DNA of 46,563 bases from a virus. Taxonomy: Duplodnaviria > Heunggongvirae > Uroviricota > Caudoviricetes. Location of the stretch: IMG/VR virus record IMGVR_UViG_2721755658_000005, positions 1-46,563 of that record. One strand, 5' to 3'. This document shows, one piece after another, positions 1 to 45,195 of this stretch. The notes under the pieces are model-generated. The model did not search any database. It was not told the origin of the DNA and saw nothing but the letters and a program-made list of their open reading frames with translations. Within the stretch, counting starts at the first letter, position 1. Each line of letters opens with the position of its first letter. A program made the translations under genes and the position numbers.

Positions 1-443
1 TGAAACGTAAAACACTGCCTCTGCTGGCACTGGTTGCCACCACTCTGTTTCTGAGCGCCTGCGATGACAGAAGTGATGAACTGAAGGCCATCAGCAAATT
101 CAAGGACCTCACTCCGCCGCGCTTCAGCGATGTGGTCAGCCGCCAGGATGATGTCAGCGAAGAATGGTCACAGGTTGGCTTCTCATCTGGTCTCACCCTG
201 CAGGTCTTACGTACCCGTGAGTCGCCCGATGGCTGCGAGGGCGGTAGTTACTACTACCTCGCGGATATGCAGGAAAAAACCGTCCAGCCGCTGATGAATG
301 CGCTTTGTATTGCCGATAACATCAAACTGGAATACCAGGAGGTGACGGACCCGTATACCAAAGAAAGATACTTTGAGTACGCCCATGACGGCAAACTGAT
401 GGGGCGACTGCTGATACCCTCAAACCCTGAGAACCACGAATAA
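1..443 (+). CDS. Putative lipoprotein of CP4-type cryptic element, 5' end cut by window edge
   Basis: Frame continuous with ORF 132..443; upstream in-frame translation reads KRKTLPLLALVATTLFLSACDD, a signal peptide with lipobox LSAC; the start codon's A lies just outside the window. Confidence 0.5.
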   Translation, partial: KRKTLPLLALVATTLFLSACDDRSDELKAISKFKDLTPPRFSDVVSRQDDVSEEWSQVGFSSGLTLQVLRTRESPDGCEGGSYYYLADMQEKTVQPLMNALCIADNIKLEYQEVTDPYTKERYFEYAHDGKLMGRLLIPSNPENHE

Positions 444-466
444 AAACAACGATAAAGGAGACAGAA

Positions 467-934
467 ATGACAATAGATTCACTAAGCCGGTTTGTACTGG
501 CATGTTCACTGTTTACCAGCTTTACAGCCTCTGCGGTTCCCGGATTCTGGCAGCAGGGCTATGGCCAGGGCAATACGGAATACAGCGTGACCGATACCAG
601 TGGGAAGATGTTTACCATCAACTGTACTGGAAATCCTGACCAGAATGGTTTCTACCAGCATTCAGTTTTTCTGACCCTGACGGATAACAGAATGGTCAGT
701 TCGCACGATGATGGCACCACAGTCACCGTGGTGATGGACCATAAGCAATATGCCATTCCCTCAACCCTTGGCTGGCGTAACGGCGATAACGCCTGGTATG
801 ACTTCATTATGGATATCCGTAAGACCGGGCAGTTTGACGTTTACGTCAATGACCGTAAAGCGGGGACTTTCACTGTGGACCTGAAGAACGCAGAGAAAGT
901 TCTGCCCACTCCCGGAGACTGCGGTAACGACTGA
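467..934 (+). CDS. Exported hypothetical protein (N-terminal signal peptide)
   Basis: 155-aa ORF with hydrophobic N-terminus [15 protein letters not shown]; followed by a hairpin plus T-run. Confidence 0.5.
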
Positions 935-958
935 AAGCCGTTCCTCCTTACGCAAACC

Positions 959-995
959 AACCCCGACAGCCATCAGGCTGCCGGGGTTTTCTTTT
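959..995 (+). terminator. Rho-independent terminator candidate
   Basis: GC-rich hairpin ccccgacagcc...ggctgccgggg followed by ttttctttt. Confidence 0.45.
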
Positions 996-1010
996 ATCAG
1001 GAGCCCGAAA

Positions 1011-1250
1011 ATGTCCCAATCCGTGTTACTGCCACCGGGGCCTTTCACCCGGAGACAAGCGCAAGCGGTCACTACCACGTACAGCAATATCACCCTCGAA
1101 GACGACCAAGGCAGTCACTTCCGCCTTGTGGTTCGAGACACTGAAGGCCGGATGGTCTGGCGGGCATGGAACTTTGAACCCGATGCCGCTGAAAGTCTTA
1201 ACCGCTACATCCGCACCTCTGGCATCCGTACAGGCACCTCCACCCGCTGA
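1011..1250 (+). CDS. DUF905-like small protein (YkfF/YfjW-type, CP4 cryptic prophage family)
   Basis: 79-aa ORF at the position conserved upstream of the antirestriction gene in CP4-type elements; family assignment from memory. Confidence 0.4.
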
Positions 1251-1345
1251 CCGCGAAGCATTTACCCGCACATTTCACCTCCCCGAACACGCTTTATTCC
1301 CCCATTTGCCAGCCATCGCCGCTGGCGTTTTTTATTAACGGAGAC

Positions 1346-1810
1346 ATGCCCATGACAACACAGACGCAGTACGGCCTCGCACCCGCTAACCAATCAGAAT
1401 TTGAACTGACCGTCACGCAGGTACCCGACGAACAGCGTATCGATTTCTGGCCGCAACACTTTGGCACTATCCCGCAGTGGACAACCCTGGAACCGCGTAT
1501 TTTTGCCTGGATGGACCGCTTCTGTTCGACCTACAGCGGTGGTATCTGGTCCTTTTACACCCTCAGCAATGGCGGGGCGTTTATGGCTCCCGAGTCTGAC
1601 AATGATGAGACATGGCGTCTGTTTAATTGCCTGAACGGCAACGATGCCCAAATGAGTGCAGAAGCCGCAGGTATTGCTGTCTGCCTGATTGCGTACAGCC
1701 ATCACGCCTGTCGCACCCAATGCGATGCCATGACTGAACACTATTACCGCCTGCGGGACTACGCCCTGCAGCATCCAGAGGCCCACGCCATTCTGCGTAT
1801 TATCGACTGA
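1346..1810 (+). CDS. Antirestriction protein (ArdB/KlcA family, YafX/YfjX-like)
   Basis: 154-aa product with the conserved gene order antirestriction - RadC - DUF987 - antitoxin - toxin. Confidence 0.7.
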   Translation: MPMTTQTQYGLAPANQSEFELTVTQVPDEQRIDFWPQHFGTIPQWTTLEPRIFAWMDRFCSTYSGGIWSFYTLSNGGAFMAPESDNDETWRLFNCLNGNDAQMSAEAAGIAVCLIAYSHHACRTQCDAMTEHYYRLRDYALQHPEAHAILRIID

Positions 1811-1825
1811 CCGAAGGAGCAACAG

Positions 1826-2302
1826 ATGAAACAGCTTTCCTTTTTACCCGGCGAGATGACGCCACAGGACCGGTGTCTCATTCAGCGGGCGCTCAGGGCT
1901 CTGGACCGCCACCTGCATGAGCCCGGCGTAGCCTTCACCTCTACCCACGCCGTACGTGAATGGCTGCGACTGCATATGGCCGCGCTTGAGCGGGAAGAGT
2001 TCCGGGTGTTGTATCTGGACAACCAGAATCAGTTGATTGCCCATGAAACGCTCTTCATCGGCACGATTAACCGCACCGAGGTGCATCCCCGGGAGGTGGT
2101 CAAACGTGCTCTGCACTTCAACGCGGCGGCGGTGATACTCGCGTACAACCATCCTTCTGGCGAGACAACACCCAGCCAGGCAGACAAAGCCCTCACGCAG
2201 CGACTGGTACAGGTGCTTCAGTTGGTGGATATCCGCGTCCCTGACCATCTGATTGTCGGCGGCAGGCAAATCTATTCGTTCGCAGAACACGGTTTGCTGT
2301 GA
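1826..2302 (+). CDS. RadC-like JAB-domain protein (YeeS/YkfG/YfjY family)
   Basis: 158-aa product with HxH-containing JAB/MPN-like core (AYNHPSGE) typical of RadC-like proteins. Confidence 0.7.
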   Translation: MKQLSFLPGEMTPQDRCLIQRALRALDRHLHEPGVAFTSTHAVREWLRLHMAALEREEFRVLYLDNQNQLIAHETLFIGTINRTEVHPREVVKRALHFNAAAVILAYNHPSGETTPSQADKALTQRLVQVLQLVDIRVPDHLIVGGRQIYSFAEHGLL

Positions 2303-2532
2303 GGTATGATATGAAAATTATCAGTAAACGCCGGGCAATGACGATATACCGCCAGCATCCTGAGTCCCGAATCTTTCGCTACTGCAGTGGAAAATATCAG
2401 TGGCACGGTAGCATCTGCCATTACACCGGCAGGGACGTTCCGGATATCGCAGGTGTCCTCGCGGTATACGCCGAACGCCGCCAGGACCGCAACGGGCCTT
2501 ATGCCTGCCTGATGAGCATCACTCTGAACTGA
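2299..2532 (+). CDS. DUF987 protein (YeeT/YkfH/YfjZ-like)
   Basis: 77-aa ORF overlapping the radC-like stop, in the conserved position before the CbeA antitoxin. Confidence 0.6.
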   Translation: MRYDMKIISKRRAMTIYRQHPESRIFRYCSGKYQWHGSICHYTGRDVPDIAGVLAVYAERRQDRNGPYACLMSITLN

Positions 2533-2552
2533 CAATACAAAGGAGAGTCGTT

Positions 2553-2870
2553 ATGACTCACATCACATGGGGCCTGCAGCGGAATATCACGCCGCGCCTG
2601 GGAGCCCGTCTGGTGCAGGAGGGGAACCGGTTGCATTATCTGGCTGACCGGGCCAGCATCACCGGCAAGTTCAGTGACACCGAATGCCGGAAGCTGGATG
2701 AAACATTCCCGCACTTTATCCGCCAGATGGAATCGATGCTGACCACCGGTGAAGTCAGCCCCCAACATGCCCACTGCGTCATCATGTACCACAACGGTTT
2801 CACCTGTGAAGCCGACACCCTTGGCAGTTGCGGTTACGTGTACATCGCCATTTATCCCACCCAGCGCTAA
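2553..2870 (+). CDS. CbeA-family type IV antitoxin (YeeU/YafW-like)
   Basis: 105-aa product with C-terminal [16 protein letters not shown], characteristic of YeeU/CbeA antitoxins. Confidence 0.8.
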
Positions 2871-2890
2871 TAACTTTCACGAGAGCAAAC

Positions 2891-3232
2891 ATGAAAACTT
2901 TGCCTGCAACAACTCAGCGGGCGGTGAAGCCCTGCCTGTCACCCGTGGCTGTCTGGCAAATGCTACTGACACGCCTGCTGGAACAGCACTATGGTCTCAC
3001 CCTCAACGACACACCGTTCAGTGAGGAACGTGTTATACAGGAACATATCGATGCCGGGATCTCGCTGGCTGATGCCGTGAATTTTCTGGTGGAAAAATAC
3101 GAACTGGTGCGTATCGACAGGAAGGGATTTAACTGGCAGGAACAATCGCCTTATCTTCAGGCTGTCGATATTCTGCGAGCGCGGCAGGCAACTGGCTTGT
3201 TGCAGCAAAGCCGTAGCAACGTAGTACGATGA
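2891..3232 (+). CDS. CbtA-family type IV toxin (YeeV/YkfI/YpjF-like)
   Basis: Starts [43 protein letters not shown], the canonical CbtA-family N-terminus; ATG at 2891 lies inside the longer tracked ORF 2828..3232. Confidence 0.8.
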
Positions 3233-3619
3233 ACATTGCGTACAACCTTCCCGATTTACATTTCTGAACTTCCTCCCTTGTTTACCTATTGCGTAATGCG
3301 CCTGCTGCTACCCGGCTGGCGCGTTATCTTTTTACGGACAAACCATCATGCAACCAGAAGGTGAAGTATTAACCGATCATAATGAGCTAATTTGTTCAAG
3401 CTTTATTGAACACATTGCCAACACATTGAATTTAGGAGTGGTGTAGACATGGACAACTAAACCTGCAGCCACGGAGGTATAGCGAGTGAAGCCCTATCCG
3501 ACCTTTTTGGTCAGTAGATAAGATTGATCTTCGTTGATAGAATTTACTTACATCAGCAGTTACATGAAAATAATTTTTGGTGGGAAAAAGATAAGACACT
3601 ACGTAACTATTTGATTTCT

Positions 3620-3665
3620 TGGTGCCGATAATAGGAGTCGAACCTACGACCTTCGCATTACGAAT
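3620..3665. repeat. attL: 46-bp direct repeat identical to the 3' end of tRNA-Thr (prophage boundary)
   Basis: tggtgccgataataggagtcgaacctacgaccttcgcattacgaat is identical to 45120..45165. Confidence 0.85.
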
Positions 3666-4080
3666 TATAAGAATCCGCTTCTAATTCAAAGCATTACCCC
3701 ATCAACACTGCGCTCACACGTCCCACCACATCAAAACATGTAAAGCCTTGCAAGTCATTGCGAGGCCTTATGTGTCTCAGTTTTGTCCCACCTTGTATTA
3801 CGACTTGCATAGCCAATGAAGATAAATGTGACGACAAACGGCGCAGCAGTCTTCTTTTCCTTCATACTTTCCCCACCCAGCATGCATACCTTCTACCATA
3901 ACTGTAGTTAATGTCTGTTATGAGCGAAAAGCGGTCCTTAAATACAATTTTCATTGATAACGCCGTCTTGTTGCTATTGAAGACATTATCAACATCATTG
4001 TGTTTTTACTTATATTTGAAGGAGGGCTATTCAAGGGATTGCCCCCTTTTAACAAAAATTCCACCAGAACAGTAGGTCTG

Positions 4081-5793
4081 CTAATTGGTCTCTATAATTG
4101 AGCTTAATTCGTTAATGAGCAGGTGAGGGCTCATTTGAGTTAAGTCATACTGCCGCCCCAATTTCTCTTGCATTCCTCCTCGTATTTTCTTTAATAAATA
4201 TTTGCCTTTAATGTTATTAACTGATGTCGGAACTTGGTTTCCAAATAATGTTAGGTGTCGAGGGCATGCTTCCAGTCTCCCCTTATATAAATTATATTTA
4301 ATCACCTCTCTTTTGGATTGAAAATCAGACTGGATGACAACATGATTTTGTGCGGCTATATCAGTAATCCATGTTTGTATATCTTGCACAGAAGAGCCTG
4401 TAACATGAGATAAATGCTCTATTCTGGTAAAATAACTCTCAATATCACTACCTTCAGTAATGAATGGAATGGCGCCACCTCTTTGAATTTCTGCTTTTAC
4501 TATATCTACTTCTTCATCAGTCATAAAATCGCGGTCACGATGAATTATAACCTTGCAATTAGGGGACATTTCCTTAAGAAGGTCAGCAGATACAATTGCT
4601 CCTTGCACATTTGTGCATGTTTTGTAGCTATAGACTGCAGTTCTCTCCATATCAAAACCATTATATTGTAAAAGGGCCTTGAAATATTTTTTATCTCTAT
4701 CTTCAGTGAGAAATATATTCTCCACAACTCCTTCAGTTACTCTATCCAAGTCATTTAAAGCTCCTAAATCTAAGAACATTGATATTTTGTCCAAATCCAT
4801 GCCTTGATTCTGAACATTACCATCTTTCATCCAAATAAAATTTGCCTCTCCATACAATGAATCAATTATATGTTTGCTATGAGTGGAAAGTATAACTTGA
4901 GTTTCTGATTTGTTATTTTCTGATATTAAACTCAATGAGTCAGTGAGAATATATTGATTATCAGGGTGAAGATGAGAATCCGGTTCATCTAAGAGTAATA
5001 ATTTAGGTTTGAAATATACTATATATGCAAATATCTGTAATGTTTGAAGTAATCCAGTTCCCGCCAACTCGATAGGGTAATTTTTCCCACTTGCATTTTC
5101 TTTAAAATTAACGGTTAGATAAGTATCTTTATCCTCTTTGAAATCCACTTCGATTTCTATATCTGGAAATACAACTTGCAGCATGCTATTGAGATTTACC
5201 AAGTGGTTATCTTTGTTCAGATAGTATATGACATTCCTTAAGTATAAATTTGCATCACCACTTGCCACTCCTCTTCTAACTATTGCTGGCGATTTTAATT
5301 CTTCCTTCTGTGAGATACCAGCCAGACCAGGGACATATATACTAAAGAGATTTTTTTCATCGGTGATTACTGAACCGAAGCCGGTATAATCACCGGTTCT
5401 TTCACATGACATATTTCCATGATTTCGTCCCTTAGATATAATTATATTGTATTCTAATTGTCGACCAGCAAGATCATCATATCCAAAAAGACTCAACACA
5501 CTTTGATTGCCAGGCGACCTCGAATTCTTATAAGGTTCGCCGTTCTTTAAAACAGTGAAGTCTGGGGTGATATTATACATTAAAAGTTCAGTAGAGAATG
5601 TTTGTTGACTTTGTTGCCGAGCGGCAATAGCTGCGCATACTGAAAAATGTATAGCTTGCAGAATACTGCTCTTACCTGAACTATTTGCCCCTACTAATAC
5701 ATTTATATCACTAAGGGTGATTTCTGCTGTGTCAATTTTTTTGAATTTACTAACAGACAAAGACTTAATGAACATTTTCTTTTCCTTTTTCAA
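4081..5793 (-). CDS. OLD-family-like ABC-type ATPase with C-terminal TOPRIM-like region; candidate phage-exclusion protein
   Basis: Walker A GANSSGKSS, Walker B LLLLDEPDSHLHP, H-loop-like LSTHS; C-terminal acidic motifs FLTEDRD and IIHRDRD; gene visibly AT-rich compared with flanking DNA. Confidence 0.6.
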   Translation of the reverse strand: MKKEKKMFIKSLSVSKFKKIDTAEITLSDINVLVGANSSGKSSILQAIHFSVCAAIAARQQSQQTFSTELLMYNITPDFTVLKNGEPYKNSRSPGNQSVLSLFGYDDLAGRQLEYNIIISKGRNHGNMSCERTGDYTGFGSVITDEKNLFSIYVPGLAGISQKEELKSPAIVRRGVASGDANLYLRNVIYYLNKDNHLVNLNSMLQVVFPDIEIEVDFKEDKDTYLTVNFKENASGKNYPIELAGTGLLQTLQIFAYIVYFKPKLLLLDEPDSHLHPDNQYILTDSLSLISENNKSETQVILSTHSKHIIDSLYGEANFIWMKDGNVQNQGMDLDKISMFLDLGALNDLDRVTEGVVENIFLTEDRDKKYFKALLQYNGFDMERTAVYSYKTCTNVQGAIVSADLLKEMSPNCKVIIHRDRDFMTDEEVDIVKAEIQRGGAIPFITEGSDIESYFTRIEHLSHVTGSSVQDIQTWITDIAAQNHVVIQSDFQSKREVIKYNLYKGRLEACPRHLTLFGNQVPTSVNNIKGKYLLKKIRGGMQEKLGRQYDLTQMSPHLLINELSSIIETN

Positions 5794-5822
5794 TGAAAGG
5801 TGTAAAACTTTAACTCATCATT

Positions 5823-6107
5823 TTAGTTGTTAACATTCAAAATCATAAACTGATTCTCTATTTTACCAATGAATAGCAGTCCTATCAGAGTAAAAATAGT
5901 GTTAGATATTTTTCTTACATCTGAATCTGAGAAATATTCGGATTCTTTATAGCAATTATTCCATATGTCGAGTTCTCTAAAATCATAAGCTAAATGAGCA
6001 ATTTTTCCCCAATCTTCATTTACTATATGTTCAGCCATTGTAAAAAAATCACTCTTAGTCGGAATGTCTATTCTCATTGTTACTTGGCCTATTTTTTCAT
6101 TGCTCAC
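5823..6107 (-). CDS. Small hypothetical protein, upstream partner of the ATPase (likely co-transcribed)
   Basis: 94-aa AT-rich ORF ending 30 bp upstream of the ATPase start; hydrophobic stretch TIFTLIGLLFIGKI. Confidence 0.4.
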   Translation of the reverse strand: MSNEKIGQVTMRIDIPTKSDFFTMAEHIVNEDWGKIAHLAYDFRELDIWNNCYKESEYFSDSDVRKISNTIFTLIGLLFIGKIENQFMILNVNN

Positions 6108-6306
6108 ATATATAACTATATGATATTTATATTAAAACTCCAACATTAAGTTTCGGCTTTCTTCAAGTAAACTACATAGCACGATGTAAGCAACTTCCGC
6201 TTTTGGCACATAGCAGTCCTAGAGATACTGGCGTAAAGCCATGGAGGATCGGTGGGAGGAGGTAAAAATCCTCTCATGCAAAAAATACGCAAAATCGATA
6301 ACAGTT

Positions 6307-6386
6307 GGAAATCATTCAATACTCGCACTATCGGAAGTTCACCAGCCAACCGCAGCACGTTCTTGCATACGACATGCCTGCGGTTT
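6307..6386. repeat. Copy A of a ~80-bp repeat family with hairpin-forming 3' part
   Basis: About 88% identical to 8982..9061; its 3' half recurs at 10044..10087. Confidence 0.7.
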
Positions 6387-6535
6387 CAACTCCCGCCAGC
6401 TCCACCAATCATGATTGGACGGTTAAGGACAACACCAATAAAAACAGGAAGTTAGCAGTCTCAGCAGGACACCGACCAGACGGTGAGGAGACAAAAAAGG
6501 ATACGCAAAGGAGCCGCGGCTCCCGAGTGACAAAA

Positions 6536-6560
6536 AAGCCCGCTTATGCGGGCTTTTTTG
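6536..6560. terminator. Bidirectional rho-independent terminator candidate
   Basis: aagcccgc-ttat-gcgggctt hairpin flanked by an A-run on one side and a T-run on the other; lies just downstream of the Bro-N gene stop. Confidence 0.6.
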
Positions 6561-6576
6561 TTTTTTTCCCTCAAGC

Positions 6577-7338
6577 TCACTGACGTGTTCTTGCCTCAAC
6601 TACTTTCTGGTATATAGCGATAGCTTCATCAACCAAAGCTAATGGATAGCAAGAATTTATATTCAATCCGGAGGGGCACTTAATTCTTTCTGCTCCACGT
6701 TCACTACGCAATTTTTCACACCATTGCCAAAGTTCCTCAACTGAATAGGTATCCAAACCTAACTCCATCAATCGTTGAGGAACACTTCTGAACTGAGACA
6801 AATCTCTTAAACTTTCTAACGAGTTAACTTTTAGTTCAACTTGGTTTACTCTACTTTCTAACTCTTCACGTTTTTCTATTTCCATTACCAATGCTTGAAC
6901 CGTCTGCTGCAGACTGTTAGCAAAAGCACTCAGTTCTGAACGTTCTTGTTTAGGTGGCGGAGGATATACACCAAATTCACGAATAGACGGAAGGACCTGA
7001 TGAAAAAGCCAGCGTTGGAATTTTTTCCCCGCAGCAGTAGTATCCTGAGCAAGTACTCTATATAGACCTGGTTCAGTAAGAAATACCTCAGAGATAGTTT
7101 CACCATCCACGACAAGAGAAACATTCCTAAACTCATCTGGATCTAAAGTTTTTATTACCGCTTTTATTACAGTGAGCAAGCTTTGAGAAGTCTTTCCATC
7201 CAGTTTTCTGTTCTCAGCAGAAAGCGTTCTTAGCACATCTGAAAGTGAAACAAAAATCTGCCCTTTTTCATTCATGCTACGGATATAATTTTCTCCACAC
7301 TCTCCTTCGTAGCATAATTGTAACAAATTCTTTTGCAC
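6577..7338 (-). CDS. Bro-N domain protein (phage antirepressor-like)
   Basis: N-terminal region ends in the Bro-N signature EPGLYRVLAQ...FQRWLFHQVLPSIREFGVY; coiled-coil C-terminus. Confidence 0.65.
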   Translation of the reverse strand: MQKNLLQLCYEGECGENYIRSMNEKGQIFVSLSDVLRTLSAENRKLDGKTSQSLLTVIKAVIKTLDPDEFRNVSLVVDGETISEVFLTEPGLYRVLAQDTTAAGKKFQRWLFHQVLPSIREFGVYPPPPKQERSELSAFANSLQQTVQALVMEIEKREELESRVNQVELKVNSLESLRDLSQFRSVPQRLMELGLDTYSVEELWQWCEKLRSERGAERIKCPSGLNINSCYPLALVDEAIAIYQKVVEARTRQ

Positions 7339-7671
7339 GCCATCCCCTCCTTTTTTTATGGATTATACATCCTATAAACATGTTGTCACCGAAAGGGAAA
7401 AGCATAAACCCAATTTATGTTCCACAAGATGTTCAAAAATCAAACAACCATATAGCTGAGGAGCACAAAAGAGCAAAAGTTTACCAACCCCATATATCCA
7501 TACAGCACATAAAATTGACACTACATGTGGTATTTTTTAAGTTACGCCTTGCACCATTTCATGGTTTTATGTAGATTGTCATCACACGCTGAGATTAAAA
7601 AATTCTACAATTTTTGTTGATCTTGAGTTTGGTTTTTAGTATAAGTGAGCATGGATTGTAGGAGGCGCAAC

Positions 7672-8022
7672 ATGGTAACTAGCTTTGGTAAGACTCTCAG
7701 AAAAATGAGAATAGACCGGGGTATGGTGCTCAAAAATATGGCTGATCTGTTAGGCGTTAGTTCGGCTTACTTATCCGCCATTGAATTAGGCAAAAGAGCT
7801 ATACCGGACTCATTAGTAAATACGATTGCAACAACTTTTGAGCTTAGCGGACAAGACATCATCAATCTCAAGAAACAGGCAGAGATTTCTCAACCGTCCA
7901 TTAAGGTTGATATGTCGGATGCAAATGAGCAGAACAAAGAACTAATGCTTGTTTTTGCTCGTAAATTTAAGGACCTGAGTCCAGAGCAACTCGATAAGCT
8001 TAATAAAATGTTAAAGGACTGA
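7672..8022 (+). CDS. XRE-family helix-turn-helix transcriptional regulator
   Basis: HTH region MADLLGVSSAYLSAIELGKR; aggagg RBS 6 nt upstream of the ATG at 7672 (tracked ORF starts at GTG 7645). Confidence 0.7.
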   Translation: MVTSFGKTLRKMRIDRGMVLKNMADLLGVSSAYLSAIELGKRAIPDSLVNTIATTFELSGQDIINLKKQAEISQPSIKVDMSDANEQNKELMLVFARKFKDLSPEQLDKLNKMLKD

Positions 8023-8025
8023 ATA

Positions 8026-8559
8026 ATGATTGCGAAACGAGAACTTGGCCATCGCGTTTCACCTCTCAGCACCAGCATGATTAAATCATACGCTCATCGT
8101 CTGAGAGACGTTCTTCAGATATCAAATCACACATATCTGAGACTGGATGTATTACTAGAAGGTCTTATGGCCTCAGAAAGCATTGAGCTAGAAATTGTTG
8201 AAGATCATGAACTGCCCAAACGCTATGCAGTGACTTATCCAGATAAGAACAAAATTGTTTTACAGCGATCTGTTTACGATGCAGTGTGCAATGGTGAGAA
8301 CCATGCGAGATTCACTGTTGCGCATGAACTTGGTCATTTAGTCATGCATCGCAATCAAAGTATCTATGCACGTAATAAGACTAGTGGAGGGCATAAAATC
8401 TATGAAGACAGCGAATGGCAAGCAGATGTTTTTGCAAGCCACTTCTTAATTGACTCAAGACTAGTTTTGCCCACAATGACTGTTGAAGATATAAGCAAAA
8501 CATTTGGTGTCAGTCAACAAGCGGCTGAAACCTGGATGAGAAAAAATGCAAAAAGATAA
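8026..8559 (+). CDS. ImmA/IrrE-family zinc metallopeptidase
   Basis: HEXXH motif in TVAHELGHLVMH; starts 3 nt after the HTH gene stop, the classic HTH-ImmA pair. Confidence 0.7.
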   Translation: MIAKRELGHRVSPLSTSMIKSYAHRLRDVLQISNHTYLRLDVLLEGLMASESIELEIVEDHELPKRYAVTYPDKNKIVLQRSVYDAVCNGENHARFTVAHELGHLVMHRNQSIYARNKTSGGHKIYEDSEWQADVFASHFLIDSRLVLPTMTVEDISKTFGVSQQAAETWMRKNAKR

Positions 8560-8684
8560 CGAAAAAGCCAGCGAACCGCTGTCGCTGGCTTCTCCTATCG
8601 TAAGCAAATACGAAAAACTTGGCGGTTGTGAGTATACGCTTACCTTAGGTTTTGTCAACAGCGAAACTTTACAGGTAACACGAT

Positions 8685-8828
8685 ATGACCATTGAAAAAG
8701 CTGTATCTGAGGAATACATCACAATTTACCGTCCTTTTATTACGGTCAAAGGTAAACGGATCTTTGCTCGTCAAAAAGGCTTGGCAGCCTTTCCTATCAA
8801 AATTCCTGCCTCTAAGTATCGAGGATAA
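8685..8828 (+). CDS. Small ORF (47 aa), hypothetical or gene remnant
   Basis: ATG-initiated frame MTIEKAVSEEYITIYRPFITVKGKRIFARQKG; below the ORF-track length cut-off; weak RBS. Confidence 0.25.
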   Translation: MTIEKAVSEEYITIYRPFITVKGKRIFARQKGLAAFPIKIPASKYRG

Positions 8829-36467: not shown

Positions 36468-36486
36468 ACTTCGTTTCTCCTCTTAA

Positions 36487-36876: not shown

Positions 36877-37199
36877 ACTTTCAGGCCCCTCTCATGTAAC
36901 CAGTGGGCTGCACGCAGCCTGCCGTTTTCCTCACCGGCAAGCAGTGCGCGGATAATCCCGACCGCCTCGCTGTCGTCGGCCTTCACCGCGGTATGAAGCG
37001 TTATCCCCCGGGCCACGCCACGCTTTATCGTGATGACGCCTTTTTTCTCCAGTGCGCGAAGATGCTCCACTGCTGCATTCACTGAACGGTATCCCAGCAT
37101 GGTTGCCACCTCCTGATTGGTTGGCGGAAAGCCACGTTCTTTCTGGTAAGAAATCAGCATATCCAGCACCTGCTGCTGGCATTGAGTTAACGTCGTCAT
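36873..37199 (-). CDS. LexA-like winged-helix DNA-binding protein
   Basis: 108-aa product resembling the LexA N-terminal DNA-binding domain. Confidence 0.5.
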   Translation of the reverse strand: MTTLTQCQQQVLDMLISYQKERGFPPTNQEVATMLGYRSVNAAVEHLRALEKKGVITIKRGVARGITLHTAVKADDSEAVGIIRALLAGEENGRLRAAHWLHERGLKV

Positions 37200-37882
37200 G
37201 CCGCCATCCCCCTGACCAGTTTTTCCGCCTGCTGGCGAACCTGCGCCAGAAACGCCTCACCACATGCCTCAAGTTCATCGCGCCCGATGTAGCTGATTGC
37301 CGGTCCCTTCCAGGTCTTGTCGAAAACAGCAATAGCACCAGCGAAGAAAGCGCCTGTCGGCACCTGCTTCTCATCCTTCGGGATAAACCAGGCAGGCAGT
37401 TCAAAACCAATACGCCCGCGAATAAAAGCAATATGATCTGCATCTTCCGGCCACCACACTTCGCTGGTGGCAGCTTTGATCAGGAAAACATAGCGCCCGC
37501 CTTTATCACGCATGGCACTGGCATGCTTCATGATGTAACGCATGCCGGTGATGTATTGCCCCTCATGCTGACTGGCGCGGCTGTATGGGGGATTACCAAA
37601 GGCAGCACCTTTAAGCTCCGCAAGACGTTCTGACCAGTCATGCGCCAACGCGTTGTCTTCCGCCGTGTAATACGCGGCACATTTGGCGTTATCACCGTCA
37701 GTGAACAGATCCAGAACAAACGGACCAAACAGGGTGTTAATTCCCCAGAAAATGTTATCTGGCGTGCGCCACTGATCGCCCACTTCCTTCAGTTCATGGG
37801 CTGGTTTGTTCCGCAGTTCCACCAGTGCCTGACAATATTTATTACTCATTAAGCCCCCACGTAATTCCCTGACAGATACCAC
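37196..37882 (-). CDS. Phage N6-adenine DNA methyltransferase (orphan, Dam-like)
   Basis: NPPY catalytic motif in FGNPPYSRA; no adjacent restriction endonuclease gene. Confidence 0.7.
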   Translation of the reverse strand: MVSVRELRGGLMSNKYCQALVELRNKPAHELKEVGDQWRTPDNIFWGINTLFGPFVLDLFTDGDNAKCAAYYTAEDNALAHDWSERLAELKGAAFGNPPYSRASQHEGQYITGMRYIMKHASAMRDKGGRYVFLIKAATSEVWWPEDADHIAFIRGRIGFELPAWFIPKDEKQVPTGAFFAGAIAVFDKTWKGPAISYIGRDELEACGEAFLAQVRQQAEKLVRGMAA

Positions 37883-38337
37883 TCTTCACCCGATGCAGCG
37901 CGCTTGCTGCTTTTCCGTAAGCACCGCTCACGACGCGCCAGAAAATTGTTTCGTTCTGGCTGGGAGTGGCTTTCACGGAATGCCGCCATCCACACCGTTG
38001 CAGCTCGACGGAATAAGCCCCTGGACTCCAGTTCTTCAGCCTGGCGGGTCAGGCACAAAATCACCCGGGGGTCGTTAGTGCCGACATAGAAATTGCGCAC
38101 AGGTCTGGTTTCACAAACTGGTTCCGGCTCCTGCGATATCTCAGCCTGGCGCGGGAAATGTCTGCGTGTATCCTCTTCACAACGGTGAGCCACACGCCCA
38201 CTCTGACGTAACTTGCTTGCTGACTGCAGAACGCGCTGCCGTGAGTAACCTGCAAAAGCATCCGCAATGTCTCCGGAAGTACACCCCGGATGGGCTTCAA
38301 TGAATTTCTGAACGTCATTTAACAGACTCATGATCAC
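37849..38337 (-). CDS. Hypothetical phage protein (possible PerC-like regulator)
   Basis: 162-aa basic protein; family assignment uncertain. Confidence 0.35.
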   Translation of the reverse strand: MIMSLLNDVQKFIEAHPGCTSGDIADAFAGYSRQRVLQSASKLRQSGRVAHRCEEDTRRHFPRQAEISQEPEPVCETRPVRNFYVGTNDPRVILCLTRQAEELESRGLFRRAATVWMAAFRESHSQPERNNFLARRERCLRKSSKRAASGEEWYLSGNYVGA

Positions 38338-39275
38338 CCTCTGAATCCTGCCGGGATCTGGCTGTAGTCCACGTTGTCGTAACTGGCTTTGAAGTACGGG
38401 TCCTCGCGTTTTTCGGTGTACGTGCTGACGGACGGCGATAAGCGCAGGGAAAGCTCATCCCATTTTTCCCGCAGCTTCGACGGGCTGAGCACGTTACGGC
38501 ACCAGAACGGATCGCGGCTGACGCGGCTGTACATCTCGCAGATTTGTTTGTGAGTACGCCCATCCTGTACACACATCAGGCGAATTTCGTTTGCCCAGGC
38601 TGTCCAGTTCGGTTCTTTGGGACGAACCACCTCGCCGTCACATTCGGCGGCTTGCTCGTACAGGGCGATGATTTTTTTCCAGAGCCACTGTGCGCAGGTC
38701 AAATCATCCTGCGTTCCCCACTGGCGCTTTTTAGGGCTGAATACAACCGCATCAGGATGGCGAGTTAAAAAATCCTGTTCATCCGTCTGCGTGTCCGGTT
38801 GCGAAGCGTCCGGACGAGAAGGTTTTTTATCTGACGGATCATGTTTTGATTTTACTGACGGATCCCCGCCAGATTCTGACGGGTGAAAACCCGCTTTTTT
38901 GCCAGATTTCGACGCATCAAATTTTGACGGGTCAGATTTTGATGCGTCAGATTTTGACGGGTCAGAATCTGACAGTTGAGAAAATGCCGCTGCCTGAAGC
39001 TTCGCAACGTTAAGCTGATAAACATTCGACGCATTGCGGTTACCCTGGCGACGCGCCTTACGCGTTAACCAGCCTTCTGCTTCCAGCCGTGCGATAGCCG
39101 TCCTGACGGTACTCATCCCCGCGCCAATCTGACGGGCAATAGTTTCAATTGATGGCCAGCACACACCTTCGTCATTACTGAAATCAGCCAGGCGGGCCAT
39201 AATTGCCACGCTGGATAATTTCATGCCTGATGCAGCGCAACCATCCCATACATAGCCGGTTAATTTAGTGCTCAT
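38334..39275 (-). CDS. Replication initiation protein (lambda O-like, N-terminal HTH) containing origin iterons
   Basis: N-terminal HTH region; internal SDPSKSDASKSDPSKFDASKS repeat encoded by DNA iterons. Confidence 0.65.
   Translation of the reverse strand: MSTKLTGYVWDGCAASGMKLSSVAIMARLADFSNDEGVCWPSIETIARQIGAGMSTVRTAIARLEAEGWLTRKARRQGNRNASNVYQLNVAKLQAAAFSQLSDSDPSKSDASKSDPSKFDASKSGKKAGFHPSESGGDPSVKSKHDPSDKKPSRPDASQPDTQTDEQDFLTRHPDAVVFSPKKRQWGTQDDLTCAQWLWKKIIALYEQAAECDGEVVRPKEPNWTAWANEIRLMCVQDGRTHKQICEMYSRVSRDPFWCRNVLSPSKLREKWDELSLRLSPSVSTYTEKREDPYFKASYDNVDYSQIPAGFRG
38828..38975. repeat. Iteron array (about 8 copies of a tcagattttgacgg-like unit); candidate replication origin
   Basis: Tandem degenerate direct repeats visible in sequence inside the initiator gene, as for lambda ori within O. 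Confidence 0.6.
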
Positions 39276-39623
39276 GACCGACCTCTATTTCCCTGAATTT
39301 ACGACGAAACTGTTCGAGCGGGCTGAAGCACTCATGCTCATAGCCTTCGCGGAGGTAGATAACTCGTTGTGTTTCCGGCTCCCAACGAATGACTCTGACG
39401 GGCACTCCGTAGTGATCTTTGAACCAGCGGTTAACTTGTCGCAAAGGACTGTCTCCTTCTGCCGGTTGAAATCACCCACAGCCCACTCAGCAAAGCTGTG
39501 GGTTACAATTTCCCTGTCACCTGGTACATTAACTGCATAGCAATACTCCACCTTCGCTTTTCCACCCGGTACAGGAAGCGCAATCAGTTGCGAGCGACGG
39601 TAGTGTGTTGTTAAACTGTTCAT
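39272..39623 (-). pseudogene. Frameshifted phage gene (two protein-like frames joined near 39450..39475)
   Basis: N-terminal frame reads [21 protein letters not shown]...AEWAVGDF; a second frame reads ...[56 protein letters not shown] and ends overlapping the next gene start. Confidence 0.45.
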
Positions 39624-40228
39624 GCGTTAGTTTCTCCACAGTCACGACACGCCACGGCGCCCGGAGCTGCACACTCGCGGGCGTCATTACTTTCTGAAAT
39701 GCAAAAGATTTTGTAGACCAGTGCTGCATGCTCCTGCAGCTTCGAAATTGAGAGATACAGCTCGTCGTTAATTGCTGTCTTCTCATGCGGTTCCACTACA
39801 CCGTCTTCGATTGCTGAACGAATCTGTTTTGAATAACTGCCGATCTGTTCAATGACTTCCAGCAGACGCTGGTTAATATCGGCGTTGTCCACATCCTCGA
39901 CGTCAGGAAGAGACACAAAGACGCCATTGGCAGACTGCGCCACAGCGTCAGCAATGAAGTGAGTTCCACCAGCACGTTGCAAAATCATTGCCCATCCCAG
40001 CGGGAAAATCTGATCGCCATCGGCACGAAGGCGGTTAAATAATGCGTTTTCTGTTACATCCAGCCAGTCAGCTGCTTCAGCGTAACCACCCGGCAACGCT
40101 GCGATAGTTTTTCTGACAGCTTTCACGTACCACTCAGGCTGTTTTTCTACTTTCCAGTGATGCTTACCCACGGTTAGCCTCATCGTTCTGTGGTTTCTGT
40201 TAATCGATTTATCCATTAGATTTTTCAT
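39620..40228 (-). CDS. CII-like phage regulatory protein (YdaT-like)
   Basis: Position directly after the Cro-like gene; start taken at internal Met MKNLMDKS of tracked ORF 39620..40285. Confidence 0.45.
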
Positions 40229-40409
40229 AAAGCTCAGGTTTAAATGGCAACCGTCCGCAAGTTCTATATGCAGCTTCTGCTGCACGTCCTTTTGGAATTA
40301 ACTGGCCCGGACGGTTTCGCCACTGATAAACGGCTTCAGTTGTTATGCCGAAAAAAGCAGCAACTTTCTCAATACTGCCGAAGTAGCTTTCGATATCGTC
40401 AGTTGTCAT
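40209..40409 (-). CDS. Cro-like HTH repressor (YdaS family)
   Basis: 66-aa product with HTH FGITTEAVYQWRNR; divergent from the CI-like gene. Confidence 0.7.
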   Translation of the reverse strand: MTTDDIESYFGSIEKVAAFFGITTEAVYQWRNRPGQLIPKGRAAEAAYRTCGRLPFKPELYEKSNG

Positions 40410-40506
40410 ACGCCCTCCAAACTAAGTTTTATTAGATGCTAATTACAAATCTATCTTTGGTCAATAAAAACTAAGATTACTTAGCAATTCAAGAAATGGT
40501 GCTCCT

Positions 40507-41133
40507 ATGGAAACGGTTGGTCAGCGTATAAAAGCTCTGAGAAGAGTTACCGGAACGTCCCAGAAAGAATTGGGTAAATTTTGTGGAGTAAGCGACGTTG
40601 CTGTGGGGTACTGGGAGAAAGACATCAATACCCCTGGTGGGGAGGCACTTTCGAAATTAGCGAAGTTCTTCAATACGTCAATAGATTACATTCTTTATGG
40701 TGCTGAGTTTGAAGGCAAACTCGTCACAAACATGCGCAGAGTTCCTGTAATATCGTGGGTTCAGGCTGGGCAGTTTACTGAGTGCAGGGCAGCAGAAGTG
40801 TTTAGTGAAGTGGACAAGTGGGTAGATACATCATTAAAGATTGGTGATAACTCATTTGCATTAGAGGTTAAAGGTGACTCCATGACTAACCCTAATGGCC
40901 TCCCAACAATACCAGAAGGCGCAACAGTGATTGTAGATCCAGATGCAGAACCTCGTCATGGAAAAATAGTCATCGCTCGACTTGATGGAACAAACGAAGC
41001 TACAGTAAAAAAATTAGTCATCGATGGCCCTCAAAAGTTTTTAGTGCCATTAAATCCTCGGTATCCCAACATCCCTATCAATGGTAATTGCCTTATCATT
41101 GGTGTAGTCAAAGGAGTTCAATACGAACTCTAA
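40507..41133 (+). CDS. CI-like repressor with S24 LexA-type autopeptidase domain
   Basis: N-terminal HTH; C-terminal catalytic serine context GDSM and lysine in ATVKKL. Confidence 0.85.
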   Translation: METVGQRIKALRRVTGTSQKELGKFCGVSDVAVGYWEKDINTPGGEALSKLAKFFNTSIDYILYGAEFEGKLVTNMRRVPVISWVQAGQFTECRAAEVFSEVDKWVDTSLKIGDNSFALEVKGDSMTNPNGLPTIPEGATVIVDPDAEPRHGKIVIARLDGTNEATVKKLVIDGPQKFLVPLNPRYPNIPINGNCLIIGVVKGVQYEL

Positions 41134-41380
41134 GACCTCTCTTCTCTAACTAAGGCACCGAACTAAGAAAAGTTTGGTGTTTTCTCTTGCCATGATAACT
41201 AAGTTAAGTTAGATTTTATATCAAAGATAACGAACAGGCAGGACGCCCACGAAGTAGCCGCCTGGGGCATATGAAGTCCAGGATGATTCGTTAGCAACAA
41301 AAAAGCGCCCTACAGGACGCTTAGCTCTTTAACAATCTGGTCCCCATCAACAAGTAACTGATAACTTGAGGAGATGTGAA

Positions 41381-41587
41381 ATGCACAAAACAGAACCCAA
41401 AATCGTCGCGCCTGGCTACACAGATGAGGAAATTTATGAGTGGATGACAAAGAAGCTGGCAGCTATAAACCAGCTTCGTGAAGTGCTGTCTTATCGACAG
41501 GAAACAATAGACTCCTTAAAAAAACTGGATCAGGAAATCACGGTTTTATCACAGGATGTTACTTTAGATATTGTGCAGACAAATTAG
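41381..41587 (+). CDS. Small hypothetical protein downstream of cI
   Basis: gaggag RBS upstream of the ATG at 41381 (tracked ORF 41366..41587). Confidence 0.4.
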   Translation: MHKTEPKIVAPGYTDEEIYEWMTKKLAAINQLREVLSYRQETIDSLKKLDQEITVLSQDVTLDIVQTN

Positions 41588-41993
41588 GATCCCATTCATT
41601 TTCGTCAAAATCATCAAAGTGATGAATTTGTGATCTCCAGTCTCGATAATCTAAAAATTTCTGGGCGGTTACGCTTATTTTATCAAGTGTGAGTTCATCC
41701 TGAATTGAAAGAAGAAGTTCATCAAATTTCATCTCATTAATCTGTTTTGGCATCCAGTGATGCTTCATCAGAATAAGGTGAACCAGAGCCTTTTTCCCAT
41801 TCAATTGATTATAGGGAGTGCCGAATTTCTTCCGGTGCTCATGTAAGACAAGGTCCAAAAGAGTAAGTAATGTTGCCCTTGATTCAACTTTGCTTATTTC
41901 GACTGATGACACTACCCCACTGATTTCAATGCCCCGATACTTTCCAACATTTTCACAGTGGGATTTGTACAGCGTATAGATATTACCGGACAT
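41559..41993 (-). CDS. AT-rich hypothetical protein in the immunity region (rex/sie-position moron)
   Basis: 144-aa ORF, AT-rich, convergent with the cI transcription unit; no recognised family. Confidence 0.45.
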   Translation of the reverse strand: MSGNIYTLYKSHCENVGKYRGIEISGVVSSVEISKVESRATLLTLLDLVLHEHRKKFGTPYNQLNGKKALVHLILMKHHWMPKQINEMKFDELLLSIQDELTLDKISVTAQKFLDYRDWRSQIHHFDDFDENEWDPNLSAQYLK

Positions 41994-42520
41994 TTCTTTT
42001 CCTTTTGCGTTGTTGGGGATAACCAGATTAACCGAATCCTTGTTGTTGGGGAATAACTAGGTCCACCTCGCCTGATGTGGCTAAAAGCAGGCACATAACA
42101 GCTAAGTATTTTCAACCAGAGAGAATCCTTAGCGTTGTGGTGAATGCGGCTCAGCGCACGCGGGTTAAGGTTGAGGCTGACAGTCGACCTTCTGTGGATA
42201 CCCACCCGCCTGGTGTGCAACCTTCACCCGGCACCACAACTTTATGCTGTGTGTAGTCCTGGCGGTACCAGTTTGTACCCTTGCTTCCGGCTGGTACCGT
42301 CCTTTTTACAAAACAGAGAAGAGCATCACCGGACGACGGGCTCATAACCCAATCCATCCGGGCGGCTGCCACCGCAGGTGTTCTTCTCTGTTTTGTGGAG
42401 AAACTAACCGCCCCTACGGGGGCATTTATGGAAATGTAATTGACTCAATAATCGCCGGACGGTGAGGGCTTCCTTTTACCCGAATTCAGCGCGGTGCAGC
42501 GCATATACGTGGAGAACAAA

Positions 42521-43057
42521 ATGTCATTTATTAAAACTTTTTCCGGGAAGCATTTTTATTATGACAGGATAAATAAAGACGACATCGTTATTAACGATAT
42601 CGCGGTTTCCCTTTCAAATATCTGTCGCTTTGCAGGACATCTTTCACACTTCTACAGTGTCGCCCAACATGCGGTGCTTTGCAGCCAGCTGGTGCCGCAG
42701 GAATTTGCTTTTGAAGCTTTAATGCATGATGCAACAGAAGCATATTGCCAGGACATCCCCGCACCACTGAAACGACTTCTTCCTGACTATAAACGGATGG
42801 AAGAAAAAATAGACGCCGTAATCCGTGAGAAATACGGGTTACCTCCTGTTATGAGCACGCCAGTGAAATATGCCGATCTCATTATGCTGGCAACCGAACG
42901 CCGCGATCTCGGGCTTGATGATGGCTCTTTCTGGCCTGTGCTGGAAGGTATCCCGGCAACAGAGATGTTCAACGTGATTCCACTGGCTCCAGGCCATGCC
43001 TACGGGATGTTTATGGAACGCTTTAACGAATTATCGGAGTTACGCAAATGCGCATGA
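42521..43057 (+). CDS. HD-domain phosphohydrolase (5'-deoxynucleotidase-like)
   Basis: H...HD motif in VAQHAVL...LMHDATEAY; ggaga RBS before the ATG at 42521. Confidence 0.65.
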   Translation: MSFIKTFSGKHFYYDRINKDDIVINDIAVSLSNICRFAGHLSHFYSVAQHAVLCSQLVPQEFAFEALMHDATEAYCQDIPAPLKRLLPDYKRMEEKIDAVIREKYGLPPVMSTPVKYADLIMLATERRDLGLDDGSFWPVLEGIPATEMFNVIPLAPGHAYGMFMERFNELSELRKCA

Positions 43058-43410
43058 ATGTTTTCGAAATGGAAGGGTTTCTTCGTGGGAGATGTGTACC
43101 GCGAGATCTGAAAGTGAATGAAACGGATGCTGAATACCTGGTGCGTAAATTCGATGCGCTTGAAGCTAAATGTGCAGCACAGGAAAACAAAGTAATACCA
43201 GTGTCAACTGAACTGCCACCAGCAAATGAAAGTGTTTTGTTATTCGATGCTAACGGAGAAGGCTGGCTAATTGGCTGGCGTTCTCTCTGGTACACCTGGG
43301 GACAAAAAGAAACCGGAGAATGGCAGTGGACATTTCAGGTCGGGGACCTTGAAAACGTCAATATCACTCACTGGGCAGTAATGCCAAAAGCACCGGAGGC
43401 TGGAGCATAA
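43048..43410 (+). CDS. DUF551-type phage protein
   Basis: C-terminal Trp-rich region GEGWLIGWRSLWYTWGQ typical of DUF551. Confidence 0.5.
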   Translation: MRMNVFEMEGFLRGRCVPRDLKVNETDAEYLVRKFDALEAKCAAQENKVIPVSTELPPANESVLLFDANGEGWLIGWRSLWYTWGQKETGEWQWTFQVGDLENVNITHWAVMPKAPEAGA

Positions 43411-43715
43411 TGACCACTTTTACCGACAAAGAACTGATTAAAGAAATTAAAGAGCGTATCAGCAGCCTTGACGTGCGAGACGATATTGAGCGCCGTGCTT
43501 ATGAAATCGCACTCCTATCTCTGGAAGTAGAACCAGATGAACGCGAAGCTTATGAATTATTCATGGAAAAGCGTTTTGGTGACTTAGTAGATCGTCGGAG
43601 AGCAAAAAACGGCGATAACGAATACATGGCATGGGATATGACTCTCGGTTGGATCGTCTGGCAGCAACGAGCTGGTATCCATTTCTCAACAATGTCACAG
43701 CAAGAGGTGAAATAA
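43410..43715 (+). CDS. Hypothetical early protein
   Basis: 101-aa ORF translationally coupled to flanking genes. Confidence 0.4.
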   Translation: MTTFTDKELIKEIKERISSLDVRDDIERRAYEIALLSLEVEPDEREAYELFMEKRFGDLVDRRRAKNGDNEYMAWDMTLGWIVWQQRAGIHFSTMSQQEVK

Positions 43716-44065
43716 TGGAGCCATACAGCCTCACACTCGATGAGGCCTGTCATTTTCTCAAGATATCCAGACCGACTGCCATTAACTGGATACGCACAGG
43801 GCGTCTTCAGGCAACACGCAAAGATCCCACTAAGAATAAATCTCCTTACCTCACAACACGACAAGCCTGCATTGCGGCTCTTCAGTCTCCGCTGCATACT
43901 GTCCAGGTGAGCGCGGGTGATGGCATAACAGAGGAAAGAAAATGTCACTCTTCCGCAGAGGTGAAATATGGTACGCCAGTTTCACATTGCCGAACGGTAA
44001 AAGATTTAAACAGTCTCTTGGAACAAAGGACAAAAGGCAGGCGACAGAACTCCATGACAAGCTAA
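43715..44065 (+). CDS. Excisionase-like DNA-binding protein (AlpA/Xis-type HTH)
   Basis: [33 protein letters not shown] is a typical Xis/AlpA HTH; the frame runs on past the integrase start, so the true stop is uncertain. Confidence 0.5.
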
Positions 44066-45105
44066 AGGCTGAAGCATGGCGGGTCAGCAAACTTGGTGAA
44101 ATACCTGATATAACGTTCGAGGAAGCGTGTGTCAGGTGGCTTGAAGAGAAAGCACATAAAAAATCACTGGACGATGACAAAAGCCGGATCGGATTCTGGC
44201 TTCAACATTTCGCAGGAATGCAACTAAGAGACATTACTGAATCAAAAATTTATTCAGCAATGCAGAAAATGACGAACCGGCGTCATGAGGAAAACTGGAA
44301 ACTCAGGGCAGAAGCATGCAGAAAAAAAGGGAAACCTGTTCCAGAATACACGCCAAAACCAGCGTCCGTTGCAACGAAGGCTACGCATCTTTCATTTATA
44401 AAGGCCCTACTAAGAGCCGCAGAGCGTGAATGGAAAATGCTGGATAAGGCACCAATTATTAAAGTGCCTCAACCAAAGAATAAACGGATCCGCTGGCTGG
44501 AGCCCCATGAAGCACAAAGGCTGATTGATGAATGTCCGGAGCCATTAAAGTCTGTTGTTGAATTTGCACTGGCAACAGGCTTAAGACGCTCGAACATCAT
44601 CAACCTTGAATGGCAACAAATAGATATGCAGCGCCGGGTGGCATGGATAAACCCGGAAGAGAGTAAATCAAACCGCGCAATTGGCGTTGCGCTGAATGAT
44701 ACTGCATGTCGCGTATTGAAAAAACAAATCGGGAATCATCACCGTTGGGTATTTGTGTACAAGGAAAGCTGTACCAAACCAGACGGAACGAAAGCGCCAA
44801 CAGTAAGGAAGATGCGGTATGACGCAAACACAGCCTGGAAAGCGGCGCTGAGACGGGCTGGTATTGATGATTTCAGATTTCACGACTTGAGACACACCTG
44901 GGCAAGTTGGCTGGTTCAAGCCGGAGTCCCGTTGTCAGTGTTACAGGAAATGGGAGGCTGGGAGTCTATCGAAATGGTTCGTCGATATGCTCACCTTGCA
45001 CCTAATCACCTTACCGAACACGCACGGCAAATAGACTCGATCCTGAACCCATCGGTCCCAAATTTGTCCCAGTCAAAAAATAAGGAAGGTACTAATGATG
45101 TGTAA
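43942..45105 (+). CDS. int: Tyrosine integrase (phage integrase family)
   Basis: N-terminus [28 protein letters not shown]; C-terminal R...H..R...Y context (HDLRHTWAS...RYAHL); ends 15 bp from tRNA-Thr. Confidence 0.9.
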
Positions 45106-45119
45106 CTTATTGATTTACA

Positions 45120-45195
45120 TGGTGCCGATAATAGGAGTCGAACCTACGACCTTCGCATTACGAATGCGCTGCTCTACCAACTGAGCTATATCGGC
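45120..45195 (-). tRNA. thrW: tRNA-Thr (anticodon CGU)
   Basis: Reverse complement reads GCCGATATAGCTCAGTTGGTAGAGCAGCGCATTCGTAATGCGAAGGTCGTAGGTTCGACTCCTATTATCGGCACCA with anticodon loop TTCGTAA. Confidence 0.9.

Follow-up and report, generated by a model that had tools for sequence, protein, structure and literature searches.

The window analyzed here is a 46,563-nucleotide stretch of DNA (IMG/VR record IMGVR_UViG_2721755658_000005, positions 1 to 46,563) in which two mobile elements are stacked at the tRNA gene thrW of Escherichia coli: an apparently complete prophage of the SfV family and a CP4-6-type island that very probably was resident first. tRNA genes whose 3′ end is regenerated can serve as attachment sites many times over. 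The stacking matters for annotation, as the locus would comprise two elements and three att copies and not one large island. Neither the phage family nor multiple use of thrW is new, and the stacked arrangement recurs in public genomes. Only the cargo of the prophage is less charted: the slot that classically is occupied by gtr genes is a swap site for defence-type genes.

Junctions at the thrW gene

A single tRNA was located in the window by ARAGORN and Rfam, tRNA-Thr(CGT) at 45120..45195 on the minus strand, which matches thrW of Escherichia coli K-12 at 76/76 positions; the Rfam scan of the window returned no RNA family besides tRNA. Positions 3620..3665, likewise on the minus strand, repeat the 3′ portion of the intact gene (45120..45165) without a mismatch (46/46), and ~12 more bases beside each copy also are similar. 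By our own estimate, the chance expectation for an exact 46-mer repeat within 46.5 kb is about 1e-19. Both copies are the reverse complement of the published att core ATTCGTAATGCGAAGGTCGTAGGTTCGACTCCTATTATCGGCACCA that is common to SfI, SfII, SfV and SfX (PMC3636060), an identity that was checked. The insert measures 41,500 bp from core copy to core copy. The prophage body between them (3666..45119), assigned by homology and gene content, contains only phage functions, namely structural, lysis, regulatory, replication and int/xis genes. The tyrosine integrase gene (43942..45105, plus strand) stops 14 bp short of the tRNA 3′ end, and the chromosomal flank with proA, identified by homology, follows the tRNA gene at 45310..46563 on the minus strand. 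An earlier note made from the sequence alone had proposed that the 46-bp tRNA-derived repeat separates a CbtA/CbeA, RadC and antirestriction module from the prophage, with the intact tRNA and the integrase at the far end. Both proposals hold: the exact repeat is flanked by the corresponding Pfam matches on its left and by phage genes on its right, and the far end is occupied as described.

A prophage-free site was simulated in silico by joining window positions 2301..3619 to 45120..46400, and 5,426 complete E. coli genomes served as the comparison set. The simulated junction occurs in one piece and at 100% identity in TW01221, and is contiguous in 367 of the genomes, including K-12 MG1655 at 95%. 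On the proA side, 2/1444 positions differ from TW01221. The comparison with strains lacking the prophage that the earlier note had proposed thus recovered an empty-site allele. The island-free arrangement also was found. In SC476 the prophage, 99.45% identical over 6196..18004, adjoins the chromosomal yagP′ fragment directly without the CP4-6 module. The same configuration is present in FT130 and L725, in which the ATPase cassette described below is the same at 99.7%. The stacked junction itself, probed with window positions 3100..3930, is contiguous in 40/5,426 genomes. The source strain is not in this set, in which the first 25 kb of the window are covered to 75% at best.

Positions 1..3232 constitute the distal end of a CP4-6-type island, of which the last 3.6 kb alone lie in the window. 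The genes, all on the plus strand, are yafY (1..443; cut by the window edge, Pfam YfjS/YafY), ykfB (467..934), and, each with a Pfam match, ykfF/DUF905 (1011..1250), the antirestriction gene yafX (1352..1810), RadC/ykfG (1826..2302), ykfH/DUF987 (2311..2532), the gene for a CbeA-type antitoxin (2553..2870) and that for the CbtA-type toxin YkfI (2891..3232). The flank is 90% identical at the nucleotide level to CP4-6 of K-12, with which it shares the order yafY-ykfB-ykfF-yafX-ykfG-ykfH-yafW-ykfI against the thrW 3′ end. The YafY/YkfB/DUF905/antirestriction/RadC/DUF987/CbeA/CbtA module is joined straight to thrW in TW01221, in K-12 and in 365 more genomes. Window positions 1..3665 are identical to TW01221 at 3665/3665 positions, and the same genes are annotated there. 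The TW01221 island is of CP4-6 type, ~45 kb in length, and has a full-length intF beside yagP′. Thus, the earlier assignment of this flank to an older CP4-type remnant stands with regard to the type of element, but the word remnant may understate its extent.

The K-12 island is bounded by thrW and by a 49-bp thrW copy adjoining intF, and the island is riddled with insertion sequence (IS) elements in both K-12 and TW01221. The 49-bp repeat and intF of K-12 lie at the yagP′ end, away from the intact tRNA, which is the opposite of the SfV-like phage layout. The TW01221 island additionally has an inserted heat-resistance locus (clpK, sHSP20-GI, yfdX, kefB-GI and others) that K-12 CP4-6 does not possess. 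In both TW01221 and 0H26 a locus of this kind (clpK, sHSP20-GI, yfdX1/2, hdeD-GI, trx-GI, kefB-GI, psiE-GI) is situated in the thrW island just to the left of the position of the window. This region lies outside the window, and judging by its presence in the closest relatives, the source strain may be heat resistant.

Family and completeness of the prophage

The prophage resembles SfV, SfI, SfII and SfIV in att core, Int and Xis, attP arms, Mu-like tail and baseplate, terminase region, cos decamer and gene order, and SfII, SfV, SfI and SfIV are among its top matches in a phage collection. The integrase and SfV Int share 98.45% identity along the entire 387 amino acids, and Xis (43622..44065, plus strand) is 98% identical to its SfV counterpart over 147 amino acids. 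The two sides of SfV attP are recovered at opposite ends of the insert: window positions 42410..45165 match SfV 23347..20592 at 98.4%, and positions 3603..3790, which include the core and the attP arm on the cargo (gtrA) side (3666..3790), match SfV 20655..20467 at 93.7%. The tail and baseplate genes (12676..24691) are 96–97% identical in nucleotide sequence to those of SfV and the terminase region also is conserved, so that attP arms, tails and terminase region together fall at 94–98% nucleotide identity. The ends of the SfV genome map beside the decamer GGGGCGGGCA at 30500..30509 (minus strand), the conserved cos site, which is the reverse complement of the 10-nucleotide cohesive end TGCCCGCCCC of SfI (PMC3636060). 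The likeness to SfV-like thrW phages that had been noted from the architecture is therefore well founded.

The genome follows the lambdoid plan: the head is of HK97 type, the contractile tail is Mu-like and packaging is of the cos type. The minus strand encodes, in turn, the tail-fibre, Mu-like baseplate, contractile tail and head-tail joining genes, all of full length (12179..24893), the HK97-type head and terminase genes for major capsid protein, protease, portal, TerL and TerS (24942..30458), and an HNH endonuclease, a lysis cassette (Rz/Rz1, endolysin, holin) and antiterminator Q (30575..34658). A Nin-like and replication region followed by the immunity region extends over 34661..41133, and includes cro (40209..40409, minus strand) and the LexA-type repressor gene cI (40507..41133, plus strand). 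In contrast to SfV, the capsid, portal, protease and lysis genes and the repressor derive from other lambdoid lineages and are not SfV alleles, which is normal mosaicism. The CI protein is only 42% identical to that of SfV, and the phage therefore is probably heteroimmune to SfV, as judged from this divergence.

The 61 genes annotated in the relatives SC476 and FORC_081 were used as a yardstick for completeness. Full-length counterparts free of stop codons are present in the window for 58 of these genes; the other three are without a counterpart. With cos and both att cores also conserved, the analysis supports a prophage that is intact at the sequence level, in agreement with the earlier note.

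Two open reading frames (ORFs) within the prophage body occupy positions characteristic of morons or unusual for them. A 339-codon ORF on the plus strand (33232..34251), opposite to its neighbors, matches phrog_6191 (unknown function) and sits between antiterminator Q and the lysis genes, a classical lambdoid moron site at which SfV has a DNA methyltransferase. At 18042..18572, a 176-codon ORF of low GC content (40%) with a match to phrog_5485 (unknown function) separates the tape-measure and DNA-circularization genes, an unusual moron position; it is present in 0H26 and absent from SfV, SC476 and vB_EcoM-689R6. The latter ORF has no Pfam or PADLOC match, and PADLOC, Pfam and PHROGs yielded no function for either ORF or for the 94-codon ORF of the ATPase cassette described below.

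Order of arrival and alternative readings

The locus can be explained by a simple history. A CP4-6-type island would already have been joined to thrW, as the outer element, when a lambdoid temperate phage of the SfV family integrated into the intact tRNA gene through its attP by means of an SfV-type tyrosine integrase. Since attP carries the last 46 nucleotides of thrW, the tRNA would have been rebuilt next to int, and the displaced 46-nucleotide copy would have stayed between the cargo end of the phage and the island. The full order in the source strain presumably is yagP′, att, island, att (3620..3665), prophage, thrW and proA; the three-att order is presumed on the basis of K-12, in which CP4-6 is bounded by thrW and the 49-bp copy. 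As the prophage is complete at the sequence level it should be able to excise: recombination by Int and Xis between the two 46-bp cores is predicted to restore the CP4-6-thrW junction in the form seen in TW01221.

That the island integrated first and the prophage second is highly probable on comparative grounds and is the most parsimonious reading. It is favored because the island-thrW junction is widespread and diverged (90–95% identical) and IS elements have eroded the island, because the prophage is near-identical (98–99.5%) across unrelated backgrounds, and because there is an experimental precedent. Tandem integration at thrW has been demonstrated for SfI and SfX, in which SfI inserts beside a resident SfX prophage, at the att copy closer to the tRNA, with the same site used in the 24 converted serotype X isolates (PMC3306764). 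The tandem lysogens resemble the window in that two elements share thrW, an att copy marks each junction and the later arrival lies beside proA and the tRNA. They differ in that both partners were active phages whose order was set by the experimenters (PMC3306764), whereas here a CP4-6-type island is the proposed older partner and the order is deduced. Several points weigh against this history. The architecture by itself is compatible with the opposite order too, as an island that integrated by its own integrase into the distal 46-bp copy of the prophage would yield the same three junctions; both orders predict identical junctions, and junction sequences therefore cannot decide between them. 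The TW01221 locus could be a cured derivative and not the ancestral state. Furthermore, the integrase and the distal att site of the island are outside the window. Thus, the earlier proposal of a later integration into thrW beside a pre-existing element is borne out with respect to independent insertion, as each element is found alone, but the arrival order that it contained is favored rather than proven.

In the reverse order, the phage would have lysogenized an island-free thrW and the island would then have entered the distal 46-bp copy beside yagP′ via IntF. Island-free lysogens of the same prophage do exist (SC476, FT130, L725), the 49-bp island core of K-12 overlaps the 46-bp phage core such that the distal copy might be a target, and the resulting junctions would equal those observed. 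Nevertheless, this order is very unlikely. With 367 genomes, the island-thrW junction is frequent, and its copies in K-12 and 0H26 have diverged to 90–95% identity with the window. IS elements are abundant in the islands of K-12 and TW01221, and this combination suggests long residence of the island. By comparison, the prophage retains 98–99.5% identity in unrelated backgrounds. The 46-bp partial copy also is devoid of the remaining tRNA that IntF normally would meet, and TW01221 at the level of the locus is the island without the prophage.

Two further alternatives concern the nature of the prophage and of the repeat. The prophage may have complete ORFs yet be fixed and non-inducible, in which case the 46-bp copies would be mere historical scars. 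Poor inducibility is common among E. coli prophages whose ORFs are intact. Moreover, homologues of the SfV early genes orf31/yfdQ and orf32/yfdP are absent (about 41993..42494), which also counts against a fully competent phage, although FORC_081 apparently is without these homologues too, its annotation showing only a frameshifted hypothetical gene there. A cryptic resident nevertheless appears unlikely: all comparable morphogenesis, lysis, regulatory, replication and int/xis genes are full length, cos and both att cores are perfect, precise empty-site alleles exist, and the 41.5-kb insert matches in size the genome of SfII (41,475 bp), a phage that has been induced and purified (PMC3636060). 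The other alternative, that the locus is a single composite element or an assembly artefact in which the 46-bp repeat is incidental, has physical adjacency in its favor and no more. It is refuted by the occurrence of each half alone with breakpoints exactly at the 46-bp core. In addition, the repeat is the published att core, and the identical stacked junction recurs in 40 independent complete genomes.

The attP-adjacent cargo region

In both SfV-type phages and the window prophage, cargo is located in a slot with the tail-fibre genes on one side and attP on the other. SfV has gtrV-gtrB-gtrA there, flanked by the tail-fibre assembly gene and by attP, but tblastn searches of the window with SfV GtrA, GtrB and GtrV gave nothing at E ≤ 1e-3. 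Unlike the Shigella serotype-converting phages, the window prophage is without gtrA, gtrB and gtrC and bears defence-type cargo instead; serotype conversion is therefore not predicted. The cargo region (3791..12675) is modular and of low GC content (34–47% compared to 55–59% for the structural genes). The slot that adjoins attP in the window (slot 1) contains a cassette encoding an ATP-binding cassette (ABC) ATPase, and elsewhere is occupied by gtrABV in SfV, by a type IV retron (RT_IV and 2TM_IV) in SC476 and by two unknown genes in 0H26. The attP-adjacent slot of SfV-like phages thus is a site of variable, exchangeable cargo.

The ATPase cassette (3940..6190; 2.3 kb) is present in 2/5,426 complete E. 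coli genomes, FT130 and L725, in the same slot. Window positions 3922..6214 are 95% identical in nucleotide sequence to the end segment of a prophage in the Klebsiella pneumoniae complex, where the segment lies beside umuDC and an invertase, an identity that points to recent exchange of the cassette between genera. The ATPase gene (4081..5793, minus strand) is a 570-codon ORF with a TTG start; relatives in RefSeq start at Met7, which gives a protein of 564 amino acids (4081..5775). Upstream on the same strand is a 94-codon ORF (5823..6107) that has no family match, is annotated in FT130 and L725, and is conserved beside the ATPase gene in the Klebsiella prophage (84% amino acid identity).

The N-terminal 330 residues of the ATPase match the Pfam families AAA_15 (2.2e-28) and AAA_21 (1.2e-23), an ABC ATPase module shared with OLD-family proteins, AbiL, PARIS (AriA/AriB) and MADS (mad3/mad4). 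Matches to NsnB, AriA, Old, GajA, PtuA and MAD3 among PADLOC and NCBIfam profiles are confined to parts of this domain. No full-length profile match to OLD, Gabija GajA, PARIS AriAB or any further PADLOC model was obtained with PADLOC or NCBIfam, and the NCBIfam scores were far below the curated cut-offs. The family comprises >1,700 proteins of about 560 amino acids in Firmicutes and Proteobacteria. AlphaFold predicted the complete protein and the isolated C-terminal domain with good confidence (pLDDT 91 and 90, respectively). The fold of the complete protein is similar to those of PtuA and retron ATPases, SMC heads, OLD (6p74; Foldseek E = 2.6e-11) and GajA. The earlier note had described the attL-proximal cargo as an OLD-like cassette in place of gtr genes. 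The absence of gtr genes and the architecture of the protein agree with this description, and OLD-like is accepted for architecture but not for family membership.

The C-terminal domain of the ATPase probably is Toprim-like, to judge from motifs and the predicted model. Its invariant residues are E364/D365, H418/D420/D422 and D450/E452. In the model, a four-stranded parallel alpha/beta unit is followed by a helical bundle, and strands 1, 3 and 4 each end with invariant acidic residues, a layout known from Toprim domains. The first strand terminates in an invariant E and the third in a DxD motif, a pattern that would be shared with other combinations of ATPase and Toprim modules. Weak matches point in the same direction: in BFVD to a RloB-like protein (E = 0.013, probability 0.96) and to the DnaG Toprim domain (probability 0.98–0.99, E about 0.1), and in PADLOC to AriB (E = 0.0056 over the core strands) and to mad4 (4/19 family members, best E = 1.5e-5). 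Set against this assignment, which draws on motifs and weak matches, the domain gave no Pfam match, no PDB sequence match and no significant PDB fold match. The window protein differs from OLD, AbiL, PARIS and MADS in fusing ATPase and nuclease-like parts in 564 amino acids and in being preceded by the conserved 94-codon gene. The cassette may be an uncharacterized anti-phage system, composed of the 94-codon gene and the ATPase/Toprim-like fusion, in a slot that acts as a general defence hotspot, a proposal to which we give roughly even chances. The cassette is a concrete and cheap candidate for defence-system testing.

A further defence-type gene in the region is at 9250..10023 (plus strand), and encodes a LEM-3-like GIY-YIG nuclease (Pfam PF22945) homologous to PD-T4-3. 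The match to PADLOC PDLC04031 (E = 2.7e-140) spans profile positions 1–255 of 256 and thus is full length, which identifies the product as a member of the PD-T4-3 family and the gene, from its sequence, as a predicted anti-phage gene. PD-T4-3 was described with the P2 and P4 defence hotspots by Vassallo et al. (2022; PMC9519451). Those hotspots resemble the cargo region in offering a fixed position in a temperate phage at which low-GC defence genes are interchangeable (an Ec48-type retron, PD-T4-3 and candidates), but the position in the window, the moron slot beside attP in SfV-like phages that classically holds gtr genes for O-antigen glucosylation, is none of the P2/P4 hotspots of that study. 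In E. coli, this slot appears to exchange defence-type cargo that includes an Ec48-type retron, the nearby PD-T4-3 gene and the ATPase with its Toprim-like domain, which is rare and unstudied. The PD-T4-3 gene sits between the cargo modules and a Pin invertase gene, and is kept in SC476, 0H26 and L725; in FT130 a 1.5-kb unknown gene takes its place.

Between the ATPase cassette and the PD-T4-3 gene is a 2.6-kb module (6387..8954) bounded by direct repeats of 107 nucleotides, the left copy (6280..6386, plus strand) being 87% identical to the right copy (8955..9061, plus strand). The module comprises a gene for a BRO-N protein resembling the anti-repressor Ant (6577..7338, minus strand; domain match) and, divergent from it, genes for a helix-turn-helix (HTH) regulator (7672..8022, plus strand; CapH-like, PADLOC capH 6e-11) and an ImmA/IrrE metallopeptidase (8026..8559, plus strand; CapP-like, PADLOC capP 5e-15), a pair that resembles the CapH/CapP regulators of CBASS. 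In 0H26 there is one repeat copy and no module, and the repeats are a module boundary or a recombination scar. A diversity-generating retroelement, which the repeats in conjunction with an annotated reverse transcriptase in a relative might suggest, was considered and rejected: the reverse transcriptase is present only in SC476, where it belongs to the type IV retron found in place of the ATPase cassette, and the repeats are not a template/variable pair but merely bound the BRO-N/HTH/ImmA module, with a single copy in the module-less 0H26.

The region is completed by a gene for a Pin-type serine DNA invertase (10084..10638, minus strand; domain match) and by an invertible tail-fibre segment of ~2 kb (10700..12695) delimited by 19-nucleotide inverted repeats at 10700..10718 and 12677..12695. 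The segment, which is of the e14 P-region type and distinguishes the window prophage from SfV, holds alternative tail-fibre C-termini and assembly genes. Nucleotide homology with SfV begins at 12676, at the inner edge of the right inverted repeat.

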